Virus record (IMG/VR): IMGVR_UViG_2599185236_000001
Span: 1 to 64,000 of that record
Direction: 5' to 3' (one strand)
From: a virus
Taxonomy: Duplodnaviria > Caudoviricetes
Length of the DNA stretch: 64,000 bases
Part shown: positions 2,984 through 59,691 of the stretch, piece after piece
How the letters are laid out: each line of letters begins with the position of its first letter
Position numbering within the stretch: position 1 is the first letter of the stretch
The notes under the pieces: generated by a model
Seen by the model: the letters and a program-made list of their open reading frames with translations, nothing else
The model's database searches: none
Told to the model about the DNA's origin: nothing
Made by a program: the position numbers and the translations under genes

Positions 2984-3148
2984 TTAGATTGTGGTGAGTT
3001 TTTCGAGGAGCGCCTCGAACTCGGTCAAGTGAGCGTCTCGCGCCTTCATCTTCCCGTCGGCAACTTCTTGCGCGTTCCGGTCGAACTTCCTACTCACCAT
3101 CCAGGCGAGTGTTTCCATCTCCCAATCGCTGAGCTCGACGGTCTTCAT
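2984..3148 (-). CDS. small hypothetical protein
   Basis: ATGA overlap with upstream stop, RBS GAAGGAAG; 54 aa. Confidence 0.5.
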   Translation of the reverse strand: MKTVELSDWEMETLAWMVSRKFDRNAQEVADGKMKARDAHLTEFEALLEKLTTI

Positions 3149-4407
3149 GCCGCTTCCTTCACGGGCGCATTGTCGTTGGCCGCCGCATAGCGCCCTGCAA
3201 CCATCTCCGGCGTCATCACGCTCCGGCCGACTTCGCCAGCCTGCTTGTGGTAGAAGATGACCTTGGCGGATCGACCTGAGAGCCATCCGCCATTCGCTGC
3301 GTATGCGTCAGGCGCGGCGAGCGTCTCGTGTTGCTCCACCTTCATAAGGTTGGTGGTCTTCAATTCGTCGGAATGCCGATGACCAACGTGGGCGTAGCTG
3401 AAGCGCGTTCGGCCGTACGCCTCGCGGAATTTGCCGACGAAGACCGAATCGACGTTGCCAGTGCCACGGCGATGTCCGTGGTGGTAGAAGAGCGTGACTG
3501 CGCCATGCTCGATCATCGAGTAGGTGCCCGGGCTGGTGTCAACGCTGATGCGAGGCTCGTCCTCATAGAACGCCGACAGCATCTCTCGCAGCCAGACCTC
3601 GCTTGAGGGGTCGTGGTTCGCATCCGCCATGATTATGTCGACCTGCTCGTGCTTCAAAAGCAGCATGCCGATGACGCGCCGGACAATCCGGATTGCGGCG
3701 CGGACCATCTTGGGATAGCGCGTATCGCCGTCGAGTAGGTGACCGTGCTCCGGCGTGACACTCTTGAATGAGTCGTAATGTAAAAAATCTCCGAGCTGCG
3801 CGAACACGGCGCGGCGAGCAGGCGGCGCTACTGAGATGGCAGACGCAAACCAATCCATGACGAGCTTTTCACCGATCGACAGGTCGTAGTCTCCTGCCCC
3901 GGTCTCTTCGTTCCAGGCAAGTGCGCCTAGGTGAGCGTCGGTAATGGTGTACTGGCAGAGCAGATCTTCCTCAAAGTAGATGGGTGCCGCCACCGGCTCG
4001 GCGCGAGGTATCTCCTCTTTGAACGCCTCGACCGCCGCGTGCATGGCGGAAAGCTGAGCGGCCGAATCCGTCGCAGTCTTGATCCACTTCGCGACTTCCC
4101 TGCCCTGCCCGTCAACGAGGGCCGAGACGCCTTTGATGAACTGGCCTTGCGGTAGCTCGAAAACCTCGCCCGGTGCCTTCGTCTGCTTAATCCAGGCGTC
4201 GCCCTGCTTGCTGGCGATCGACTTGATAGCGAAGCCCGGCAGGACCGGATCCGTACCGAGCTGGCCGCGCTCGGCTGCACGATGGATGTACTTGTGGGCC
4301 GTCCCGTAGCCGACCCCCATAAGCTTGGCGACGGCACGGATGCTGTTGTGCTCGGCGTAAAGTCTGCCGGCCTGTTCGATGTTCTCGGGTGGGATGGGAT
4401 GGCTCAA
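3145..4407 (-). CDS. calcineurin-like metallophosphoesterase with N-terminal HTH
   Basis: TDAHLG, LGDFLHYD, ANHD, HHGH, GHRH motifs; N-terminal SIRAVAKLMGVGYGTAHKY helix-turn-helix; TTG start overlaps upstream stop. Confidence 0.78.
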   Translation of the reverse strand: MSHPIPPENIEQAGRLYAEHNSIRAVAKLMGVGYGTAHKYIHRAAERGQLGTDPVLPGFAIKSIASKQGDAWIKQTKAPGEVFELPQGQFIKGVSALVDGQGREVAKWIKTATDSAAQLSAMHAAVEAFKEEIPRAEPVAAPIYFEEDLLCQYTITDAHLGALAWNEETGAGDYDLSIGEKLVMDWFASAISVAPPARRAVFAQLGDFLHYDSFKSVTPEHGHLLDGDTRYPKMVRAAIRIVRRVIGMLLLKHEQVDIIMADANHDPSSEVWLREMLSAFYEDEPRISVDTSPGTYSMIEHGAVTLFYHHGHRRGTGNVDSVFVGKFREAYGRTRFSYAHVGHRHSDELKTTNLMKVEQHETLAAPDAYAANGGWLSGRSAKVIFYHKQAGEVGRSVMTPEMVAGRYAAANDNAPVKEAA

Positions 4408-4709
4408 GTGGTGGCCTCCTTGAGGGCGGCGTCGATGAGGCCAGACCAGACGCGATTGAACTTGTCGGGATACCCGTCGACACCGAGCGTGATGTTGCCG
4501 TCGCCACAGGAGAAGTCGTCGAAGTAGACGGAAATCTCGTTGGCAGCTTCGTGCAGGGCGGTAGATGGCTCCCGCATCGCTTCGAGGGCGGCGCGGGCGT
4601 GCGGCACGTAGTGCCTCCACCATTGGAAGCTGTTGTGCGATAGTTCGTCGGGATTTTTGCCGTCCTCGGTCGCGATAGCTCGCGCCGCCCGCTCAATCAT
4701 GCTGGTCAT
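4404..4709 (-). CDS. hypothetical phage protein
   Basis: RBS AGGAGAC; MIERAARAIA...ARAALEAMREP pattern typical of small phage proteins. Confidence 0.6.
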   Translation of the reverse strand: MTSMIERAARAIATEDGKNPDELSHNSFQWWRHYVPHARAALEAMREPSTALHEAANEISVYFDDFSCGDGNITLGVDGYPDKFNRVWSGLIDAALKEATT

Positions 4710-44587: not shown

Positions 44588-44935
44588 CTATCCAAGTTCG
44601 ATCGGATACCCGTCGACCCCTATGACCGCGACCTTCTTGCCGCGCTCCATCACCTGCTTGGCGCTGTTGTGGTGGTGAGCGCAAAGCGACTGCAGGTTCA
44701 GTGGGTCATGGAATAGTTCAAGGTCGCCTTTGTGCGCCTTGCGATGGTCGACGACCTCGGCAGCCGTGATGTCCTCGGTGATCAGACAGAACTCGCAAAG
44801 CGGCTGAACCGCAAGCTGATGCTGGCGTAGCCGCTTCCATGCTGCTGTCTGGTAGAGGTGGTGCCAGGTGGACTTGGTTGCGGGGGCTGGACTTGAACCA
44901 GCGACCTCTTGGTTATGAGCCAAGCGAGCTACCAT
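44588..44935 (-). CDS. HNH endonuclease (packaging-associated)
   Basis: LY-x-x-x-AW-x-x-LR, PLCEFC, VVDH, H, NLQSLC-x-x-HHN; start lies within tRNA. Confidence 0.85.
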   Translation of the reverse strand: MVARLAHNQEVAGSSPAPATKSTWHHLYQTAAWKRLRQHQLAVQPLCEFCLITEDITAAEVVDHRKAHKGDLELFHDPLNLQSLCAHHHNSAKQVMERGKKVAVIGVDGYPIELG

Positions 44936-44951
44936 GCTGCTCTACCCCGCA
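44875..44951 (-). tRNA. tRNA-Met (CAT), initiator-like
   Basis: 77 nt TGCGGGGTAGAGCAGCATGGTAGCTCGCTTGGCTCATAACCAAGAGGTCGCTGGTTCAAGTCCAGCCCCCGCAACCA; cloverleaf, encoded CCA, A11-U24. Confidence 0.93.
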
Positions 44952-57897: not shown

Positions 57898-59691
57898 TCA
57901 GAACGGGATGTCATCCCAATCTTCTTGCATCCACGCAGGCTTGTTGTCGTTCGCCGGCGGCTCGTCGTCGTCGTTGGCTGCGCCATAGTCGCCGACCACA
58001 TGAGAAACCACGTCCCAATACCGATCCCTCGGTTTGACCATGATCTCCGCTGTCTCTTTCAACTCGGTCTGGCGCTCCAACCACTCCAAAACGCTTCGAG
58101 GGAACGGCCGCTGGCCTGCATGGGCAAGCCAAAACCTATCCGCCTTAGTTTTGGCGAAGCCGGAATGCTCGGGGCACAGCCACTCGTTGATGGCCGTCAT
58201 GCCAGACATGTAAGTGACTTTGACTGACGGCGGCTTGTCGCCCTTCCCTTCATGGAAGCGGAATGTGCGGCTCGTAACGTCGCGCGAATCCGGCTCGGCC
58301 ATCGTCATGATTGGCACGTCGGCGGCGTTCGCAGCGATCTTCGGGCTGTCATCGATGTCAAACTCGAACCCGCAGCAGGTGCAGATGCGAGCCGAGGCGT
58401 GCAGCTTCTCGCCGCAGCCTGGTTCGCCATGCTTGTCGAAGCCATCCTGCGGGCAGATCTTCATCGGCGCTTCGCCGTCGCCGCTACCCGGCTCCTTCGG
58501 CTCAACCATATCGACCGGCCCATGCTTGTCGACGAGGCCGGCGAAGTCCAGCACGAGGCAGGACGGCTTAGGCCCGGCAGCAATAGCGGCGCGGCGCTCC
58601 TCCGGCGTCTCCAACGACATGCCTGGCGCGTAAAGCACGCGAGTGCCCCTTCCCATCATCTGCAGGTAAAGGCTCGCGCTAAGCGTCGGCCGGAGCGCCG
58701 CAATGAGATCCACGCCCTTGTGATTGAATCCCGTCGTCAAGACTGAGTTGTTGGTCAGAGCGCGGATGCGATAGGCCTTGAAATCCTCGATGATCCGGCG
58801 GCGCTCCTCTTTCGGAGTGTCACCGGTGATGGTCTCGCAGCTGATGCCGCGCGACCGTATCTCGTCGCGGACGTGCTCGGCATGCTCGACACCGGAGCAG
58901 AAGCAAAGCCAAGACCGTTTGTCGGCGCCCTTGGCCACTATCTCATCGACTGCGGCGCGCGTGACGTCCATCTTGTCAACGGCAGCCTGTAGCGCCGACT
59001 GCTTGAAGTCGCCTCCGAGCTTGCCGACTCCCTTGGTGCTGAGCTCGAGAGCGGTATGCTTCGATGACAGCGGGGCGAGGTAGCCATCCCGCACGCCATC
59101 GGCGATGCCGTAGGTATAGACGACGCGGTCGAACATGCGATCGTCTCCCTGGTCGAGGCGACCGCTGTCCAGTCGAAATGGCGTTGCGGTCAGGCCGACA
59201 ATCTTAAAATCCGGATTAACTTCACGCATGACGCGAAAGAACTGGCCGTACTGAGTGTCGCTGTTCTTCGGGATCAAGTGGCATTCGTCGACCAGCACTA
59301 CGTCGATGGGTCGGTCGAAGATCTTCTCGCCGTCGACGACGCGGGCGCCGCAGATCAGGTCCGCCTTGTTCCAGACAGTCTGAATGCCAGCAAAAATGAT
59401 CTGACTGCGCGCGTCTCGGCGGTTAAGGCCGGCTGAGAAGATGCCCGCCGGCGCAAAGGGCCAGACGCCGAGTAGCTCGAGGTAATTCTGCTCAATGAGC
59501 TCGGCCACGTGGGTGACTACCATAATACGCATGTCGGGCCAGCCCTCGACGAGCTGTTGGATGACGGTGGCCATTACCATCGACTTGCCCGTACCGGTAG
59601 CGAGGTCGATCAGCGGATTGCCAGCCTCCTCTCCCCAATAGTCGAACAGCGCCGCAACGGCGTCTTCCTGATAGTACCGCAGCCCCATCAA
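57898..59691 (-). CDS. superfamily II DEAD/DEAH helicase with zinc ribbon
   Basis: LRYYQ, LATGTGKS, VDECH, GLTATP, QMMGRGTR, LDFAG, KICP...CTCC; ends DDIPF. Confidence 0.95.
   Translation of the reverse strand: MMGLRYYQEDAVAALFDYWGEEAGNPLIDLATGTGKSMVMATVIQQLVEGWPDMRIMVVTHVAELIEQNYLELLGVWPFAPAGIFSAGLNRRDARSQIIFAGIQTVWNKADLICGARVVDGEKIFDRPIDVVLVDECHLIPKNSDTQYGQFFRVMREVNPDFKIVGLTATPFRLDSGRLDQGDDRMFDRVVYTYGIADGVRDGYLAPLSSKHTALELSTKGVGKLGGDFKQSALQAAVDKMDVTRAAVDEIVAKGADKRSWLCFCSGVEHAEHVRDEIRSRGISCETITGDTPKEERRRIIEDFKAYRIRALTNNSVLTTGFNHKGVDLIAALRPTLSASLYLQMMGRGTRVLYAPGMSLETPEERRAAIAAGPKPSCLVLDFAGLVDKHGPVDMVEPKEPGSGDGEAPMKICPQDGFDKHGEPGCGEKLHASARICTCCGFEFDIDDSPKIAANAADVPIMTMAEPDSRDVTSRTFRFHEGKGDKPPSVKVTYMSGMTAINEWLCPEHSGFAKTKADRFWLAHAGQRPFPRSVLEWLERQTELKETAEIMVKPRDRYWDVVSHVVGDYGAANDDDEPPANDNKPAWMQEDWDDIPF

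Follow-up and report, generated by a model that had tools for sequence, protein, structure and literature searches.

An ssrA-like tail conserved on a predicted metallophosphoesterase of a relative of Rhizobium phage 16-3 is a candidate SspB-assisted ClpXP degron

The window analysed here, a stretch of 64,000 nucleotides from the IMG/VR virus record IMGVR_UViG_2599185236_000001, lies in its entirety (positions 1–64000) within a prophage on contig C30 of a 6.9-Mb genome. The prophage is a relative of the temperate Rhizobium phage 16-3. One of its minus-strand genes, which encodes a predicted metallophosphoesterase, ends in a 13-residue tail, AAANDNAPVKEAA, that resembles the ssrA tag encoded by the transfer-messenger RNA (tmRNA) of the host. 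Comparisons of homologous sequences indicate that this tail is under selection at the peptide level, as a mimic of the host ssrA tag. We consider it reasonably probable that the mimic serves as a degron through which the adaptor SspB assists degradation of the enzyme by the protease ClpXP.

Direct reading of the minus strand agrees with the original prediction that the segment at 3145–3186 encodes ANDN, a short spacer and a terminal Ala-Ala. The reverse complement of the segment is GCG GCG GCC AAC GAC AAT GCG CCC GTG AAG GAA GCG GCA TGA, which translates as A-A-A-N-D-N-A-P-V-K-E-A-A-stop. The tag encoded by the host tmRNA is ANDNNAKGYALAA, and the AANDN of the tail corresponds to the head of this tag plus the Ala carried by tmRNA. 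Of 27 native tags sampled across the bacterial class, 25 begin with ANDN and every one ends in AA, around a free middle and at lengths of 10–13 residues; the phage tail, which extends 11 residues from ANDN to the end, falls within this range. The tail had been described as a complete SsrA-like tag. That description holds for the AANDN head, the AA end and the native length, but not for the residue before the final AA, which is Glu in the window copy and Leu, Val, Ala, Met or Ile in native tags. The tail shares with the native tag read by alphaproteobacterial SspB and ClpXP an (A)ANDN head, an Ala-Ala end, a length class and a free middle. The two differ in that the native tag is added by trans-translation and carries a hydrophobic residue before AA, whereas the tail is encoded in the gene itself, has polar or charged residues before AA and often contains Pro after ANDN-x. 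Recent capture of an ssrA gene is an unlikely origin, since only the ANDN and AA anchors match and the spacer APVKE is unrelated to NAKGYAL.

The two anchors are retained among the closest relatives of the enzyme. In a sample of the 120 closest database homologs (60–95% identity), 101 proteins carry ANDN followed by 6–10 residues to the end (7 residues in 49 and 9 in 34), and tail lengths counted from ANDN are mostly 11 or 13. Ala closes 99 of the 101 tails, with AA as the final pair in 75 and VA in 23. The residue immediately preceding ANDN is Ala in 96. The spacer and the linker upstream of the head vary widely. Pro occupies position +2 in 70 tails, positions -4 and -3 are rich in Arg and Glu, and the residue before the last two is R in 38, A in 21, M in 11, K in 8 and V in 5. 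Protein p044 of phage 16-3, which has the same length as the enzyme (420 residues) and is 52% identical to it over 415 residues, has the C-terminus ...ANDNVPASERRVA.

Codon and junction counts were made over 32 genomic copies with flanking DNA. In the head, the first Asn is encoded by AAC in 13 copies and AAT in 19, Asp by GAT in 15 and GAC in 17, and the second Asn by AAC in 15 and AAT in 17. All four Ala codons occur in the head, and all four synonyms are likewise used for the terminal Ala. Because synonymous codons are used about evenly across A-A-N-D-N, and in a single reading frame, selection appears to act on the peptide and not on a DNA or RNA motif. The original prediction had cautioned that KEAA also encodes the ribosome binding site of the next gene and its ATGA overlap. 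This is true of the window copy, in which AAGGAA sits 5 nt ahead of the downstream ATG and the ATGA spans 3145–3148. Indeed, the stop codon overlaps the next start as ATGA or GTGA in 20 of the 32 copies. We conclude that this arrangement is not the cause of the anchors, because the other 12 tails, which terminate at TAA, TAG or TGA without a start overlap, still end in AA or VA and do so with GCC or GCT codons; because the downstream gene is not the same in the window and in 16-3 and varies among most genomic loci; and because host open reading frames (ORFs) with ATGA or GTGA stops end in AA in only 4.5% of cases, against 3.6% overall. The tail is therefore kept when the downstream gene differs, a point that the original prediction had singled out for checking, and it is kept with or without a start overlap. 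The composition of the spacer, rich in Arg and Glu, may owe something to the overlap, but the ANDN and AA anchors do not arise from it.

The enzyme to which the tail is attached matches PHROG 704, named 'DNA repair exonuclease' (E 2.5e-121), and shows a weak Pfam HTH_29/HTH_23 match at residues 12–48, corresponding to an N-terminal helix-turn-helix. Pfam Metallophos gave no match at E 0.01, and a search of PDB sequences with the enzyme returned no match. The metal-binding motifs of calcineurin-like metallophosphoesterases (DxH, GD, GNH[DE], H and GHxH) are all present, and D157-x-H159, G206-D207, N264-H265-D266, H309-H312 and G342-H343-x-H345 are invariant across 24 sequences. An AlphaFold2 model of the enzyme has a mean predicted local distance difference test score (pLDDT) of 70, and its best Foldseek matches are Mre11, Rv0805, GpdQ, YfcE and SbcD (E 2e-5 to 1e-3, with modest template-modelling scores). 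By PHROG name and fold, the protein is predicted to be an Mre11/SbcD-like, calcineurin-like metallophosphoesterase of DNA-repair type; its predicted activity on nucleotides is unproven. The globular part of the model closes with a strand (residues 391–398) followed by a short helix (400–403), the last element. Since pLDDT falls below 50 at residues 407–414, beyond this helix, the tail is modelled as a flexible, disordered appendage outside the fold, itself a low-confidence region with a mean of ~50 over the last 20 residues. DSSP assigns a low-confidence helix at residues 414–419 of the model.

The host encodes the machinery that would read such a tail. Its single sspB gene (PF04386, E 8.5e-47) directly adjoins the tmRNA gene on the same strand (C26:203014–203955), and no further protein resembling SspB was detected in the host genome. 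The encoded SspB is ~90% identical to Agrobacterium SspB (PDB 2NYS) and homologous to Caulobacter SspB-alpha (2QAS/2QAZ). Of 41 genomes sampled from the order, 40 yielded an SspB, which has a conserved C-terminal peptide, VVSLDxFRKK, that is likely the ClpX tether. Host ClpX contains a zinc-finger N-domain (zf-C4_ClpX, E 2.1e-20). In E. coli, SspB contacts the tag's first seven residues and ClpX contacts the tag end (PMC9963277); the determinants for SspB-alpha were taken from E. coli data and from homology to the solved structures. A screen of pentapeptides in E. coli found that terminal Ala-Ala is dominant among ClpXP-dependent degrons and that LVA ends are active too, and also that AA after poor upstream residues is often weak (PMC10862746).

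These components suggest a model in which host SspB accommodates the AANDN head in its peptide groove and is in turn tethered to the ClpX N-domain. The ClpX pore would then take up the free Ala-Ala carboxyl end, and ClpXP would unfold and degrade the phosphoesterase. Native tags have hydrophobic residues before AA, but those of the tail are polar or charged; by itself the ClpX signal is therefore probably weak, and turnover of the enzyme would depend largely on SspB. SspB binding, degradation by ClpXP, a short half-life of the enzyme and a benefit to the phage are the parts of the model that we infer.

The distribution of the tail across more distant relatives fits a host-matched add-on. The original prediction held that absence from most homologs would speak against a degron; the tail is kept in the large majority of the closest homologs (the 101 of 120 described above) and is absent from most distant family members. 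In a quick IQ-TREE tree built from the globular part only, with tails excluded and only a midpoint root, a single Hyphomicrobiales clade of 40 rows, to which the window and 16-3 subclades both belong, contains all 30 rows with ANDN+[AV]A, and about six changes are needed to explain the tail states. Outside this clade, 8 rows have AA only and 8 have neither anchor (gamma- and betaproteobacterial prophages and enterobacterial phages). The gamma- and betaproteobacterial prophage copies have no ANDN, and 8 of 11 finish in a short ...AA such as MLAAA, MLEAA or KGEAA (loci L047, L048, L049, L051, L052, L054, L055 and L057). Among phages, the tail is present in Rhizobium phage RHph_TM3_3_14B and in 16-3, and the ANDN...AA tail is absent from the homologs of coliphages Rtp and smaasur, Klebsiella phage KP36, a Vibrio phage, and Ruegeria and Dinoroseobacter phages. 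The C-termini of two coliphage, one Klebsiella and one Vibrio phage homologs contain no AND... head, and most tail-less phage homologs end a few residues past a conserved ...GEVGR...PEM... block. Among cluster representatives at 50% identity, the C-terminal block pattern recognised 68 of 150 proteins; with proportions that are accordingly rough, 2 of the 68 carry the full tail, 10 have AA only, 6 end in another xA and 50 have neither. Within this sample, the sequences place the tail in a single clade of Hyphomicrobiales genomes and rhizobial phages, and it appears rare in distant family members. The distribution suggests that the bare terminal AA, a ClpX-type end, predates the full mimic or occurs more widely. 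From these tail states, terminal AA is the wider habit among prophage copies of the enzyme, and the ANDN head appears to have been added in the lineage whose hosts have ANDN tags.

The ANDN head is not confined to this enzyme. In the window, the pattern that codes for ANDN, GCNAAYGAYAAY, is present in 18 copies, compared with 0.23 expected from shuffles, and every one of them is on the minus strand, in frame and within a long ORF. Half of all occurrences in the genome (21 of 42) fall in ~70 kb of prophage, and one other is the tmRNA gene itself; sites outside the prophage are scattered and not tag-like. Phage 16-3 likewise has 18 ANDN copies. The 15 carrier proteins of the window are a deoxynucleoside monophosphate kinase, a deoxyribosyltransferase-like protein, MazG, the metallophosphoesterase, a primase-polymerase, a protein resembling 3'-phosphoadenosine-5'-phosphosulfate (PAPS) reductase, two methyltransferases, a helicase, a sigma factor, a protein like single-stranded DNA-binding protein (SSB), one protein of unknown function and three virion proteins (tape measure, major head protein and portal). 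Alanine ends are abundant as well: among prophage ORFs of at least 150 residues, 45% end in Ala and 23% in Ala-Ala, versus 14.9% and 3.6% elsewhere in the genome, and the excess of Ala ends persists with or without start-codon overlap. The literature that was searched contained no paper on an encoded AANDN motif in phage proteins or on this phage-wide pattern.

Several observations weigh against the degron model. The residue before AA is Glu here and mostly Arg, Ala or Met in homologs, in place of the hydrophobic set of native tags, and native tags seldom have the Pro that many of the tails carry at +2. The Arg/Glu-rich positions before AA are confounded with the Shine-Dalgarno sequence of the next gene. 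Moreover, many ANDN copies of the phage are internal, N-terminal or on virion proteins, and a simple C-terminal degron leaves these unexplained. We suggest that the ANDN head has uses besides C-terminal degrons.

A rival explanation is that the tail binds SspB, ClpX or both, but for a purpose other than turnover of the enzyme itself. The ANDN proteins could be joint decoys that occupy SspB-ClpXP, sparing other phage proteins or disturbing host quality control, or could exploit dimeric SspB as a scaffold. The phage-wide spread of the motif, with many of the 18 copies in positions from which they are unable to act as C-terminal degrons, is in keeping with this idea, as are the excess of AA ends in prophage ORFs over those of the host and the saturation of ClpXP, for which substrates are known to queue (PMC12013620). 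However, the presence of both anchors together, at native spacing and with a free C-terminus, is a layout for delivery that goes beyond mere binding, and a decoy does not need the exact terminal Ala found in 99 of 101 tails. For the tail of the enzyme we therefore regard this explanation as unlikely.

Alternatively, ANDN could be a docking motif for some other partner, such as a phage hub protein, a virion or assembly factor or another host protein, in which case the likeness to ssrA would be coincidental and AA would have a separate role. The motif does occur in the portal, major head protein and tape measure, and it stands beside other tail motifs such as QADLF and DDIPF. Yet its identity with the head of the host's own tag extends over five residues, that head is near-invariant in the class, and all occurrences of the motif in our sample are associated with hosts of that class. 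ANDN is also paired with the second anchor of the tag at native spacing, and the genome yielded no additional SspB-like protein. We find a different partner quite improbable. That the tail is a by-product of nucleic acid, either a DNA or RNA motif (GCCAACGACAA) or a translational-coupling cassette (Shine-Dalgarno sequence plus ATGA) of the downstream gene, is hardly credible and is largely refuted by the sequence comparisons: the K-E codons of the window copy do read AAGGAA, its last Ala codon does lie within the ATGA and most genomic copies overlap the next start, but all ANDN copies use one reading frame with about even synonymous codons, the 12 tails without overlap keep AA or VA with other Ala codons, and AA is rare at overlapping host stops. 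An SspB-assisted ClpXP degron remains the explanation that we favour.

The coordinates of the tail, its parts and related features are collected in Table 1. The start of the enzyme gene was set at a TTG codon that is preceded by an AAGGAGG Shine-Dalgarno sequence and overlaps the stop of the upstream gene (4404–4406) as TTGA. A listed ORF at 3145–4623 (492 residues) was rejected as overlong; its first 72 codons are not part of the gene, and the chosen TTG gives the length of p044. The downstream ORF has no Pfam or PHROG match, and megablast of window positions 1–24000 against phages gave no match.

Table 1. Features of the enzyme gene, its putative tag-mimicking tail and related tails in the window
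Feature	Position	Strand	Remarks
Enzyme gene	3145..4407	-	420 aa; start TTG at 4407, stop TGA 3145-3147; ortholog of 16-3 p044
C-terminal tail AAANDNAPVKEAA, putative tag mimic	3148..3186	-	13 residues; direct reading; stop at 3145-3147
Head A-A-N-D-N	3169..3183	-	Same as start of host ssrA tag as added (tmRNA Ala, then ANDN)
Spacer A-P-V-K-E, free	3154..3168	-	K-E codons AAGGAA (3154-3159) = Shine-Dalgarno sequence of next gene
Terminal Ala-Ala (GCG GCA)	3148..3153	-	Direct reading; free C-terminal carboxylate
Downstream ORF	2984..3148	-	54 aa; ATG overlaps enzyme stop as ATGA (3145-3148)
Second complete tag-like tail ANDNAPIQADLFGEAA	54581..54628	-	On DNA methyltransferase
Third complete tag-like tail AANDNSPAGDLLRAA	55411..55455	-	On second DNA methyltransferase

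Other C-termini of the phage combine ANDN with further motifs. The tail ANDNAPIQADLFGEAA contains QADLF, which resembles a beta-clamp-binding motif, between its ANDN head and AA end. The helicase (PHROG 16; 57901–57954, minus strand) has the C-terminus ANDNKPAWMQEDWDDIPF, with an SSB-like acidic DDIPF tip behind ANDN; in the 16-3 helicase p088, ANDN occurs twice and the C-terminus is ...ELDDEVPF. The prophage spans C30:55–135 kb and continues past the end of the window, as judged from further tag-like tails that lie there. Two of these are complete, ...AANDNRLPEMAVAA-stop (C30:128408, minus strand) and ...PANDNRRPQRQRAA-stop (C30:131657, plus strand), and an N-terminal MSKIPANDN is found at C30:131779. 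A tRNA-Met gene lies within the prophage at 44875–44951 (minus strand); Rhodobacter and Caulobacter phages have similar ones.

Genome-encoded ClpX degrons are already known, including on phage switch proteins. Mycobacteriophages with integration-dependent immunity carry ssrA-like C-terminal tags on Int and viral Rep (Broussard et al. 2013, per PMC9635641), and these are likewise ssrA-like C-termini encoded by temperate phages that hand their own proteins to ClpXP-type proteolysis. The mycobacteriophage tags are on switch proteins and have been tested experimentally, whereas the tail described here, known from sequence, sits on a DNA-repair-type enzyme, has a copy of the adaptor-binding head and is part of a pattern that runs through the phage proteome. 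A second parallel is E. coli RseA(1–108), a natural SspB-assisted ClpXP substrate that ends in VAA (PMC8138137) and similarly joins an SspB-binding stretch to a C-terminal [V/A]AA ClpX signal in a natural, non-tmRNA context. In RseA, cleavage is what exposes the degron, and the sequence that SspB binds bears no relation to the ssrA head; the phage tail, in contrast, has a literal copy of the head and a constitutive end. Finally, engineered ssrA variants with an intact SspB head and a weakened ClpX end undergo adaptor-dependent degradation (PMC3064785). On paper these follow the same logic as the tail, but they are synthetic and E. coli-derived, with measured kinetics, whereas the tail is natural.

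Several features set the present case apart. The tail reproduces the host tmRNA tag literally and in both parts, the adaptor-binding head included, on an ordinary phage enzyme, and it shows purifying selection across a large phage enzyme family, matched to the host class. The tail also provides a simple test system that consists of one tail and two anchors in a model phage, 16-3, with a model host, and such tails would offer natural adaptor-dependent degrons for rhizobia. It is tempting to imagine, although we hold it to be rather improbable, that the tail and ~20 other phage proteins with ANDN, AA ends or both compete with ssrA-tagged host products for SspB-ClpXP. Ribosome stalling would then flood the protease and stabilise the replication and repair enzymes of the phage, and the phage would read host translational stress by proteolytic queueing, tuning its induction or replication. 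If the degron assignment is true, phages plug ordinary enzymes into the clean-up pathway of trans-translation, which raises the idea that phage protein levels may be coupled to the host's load of stalled-ribosome products.

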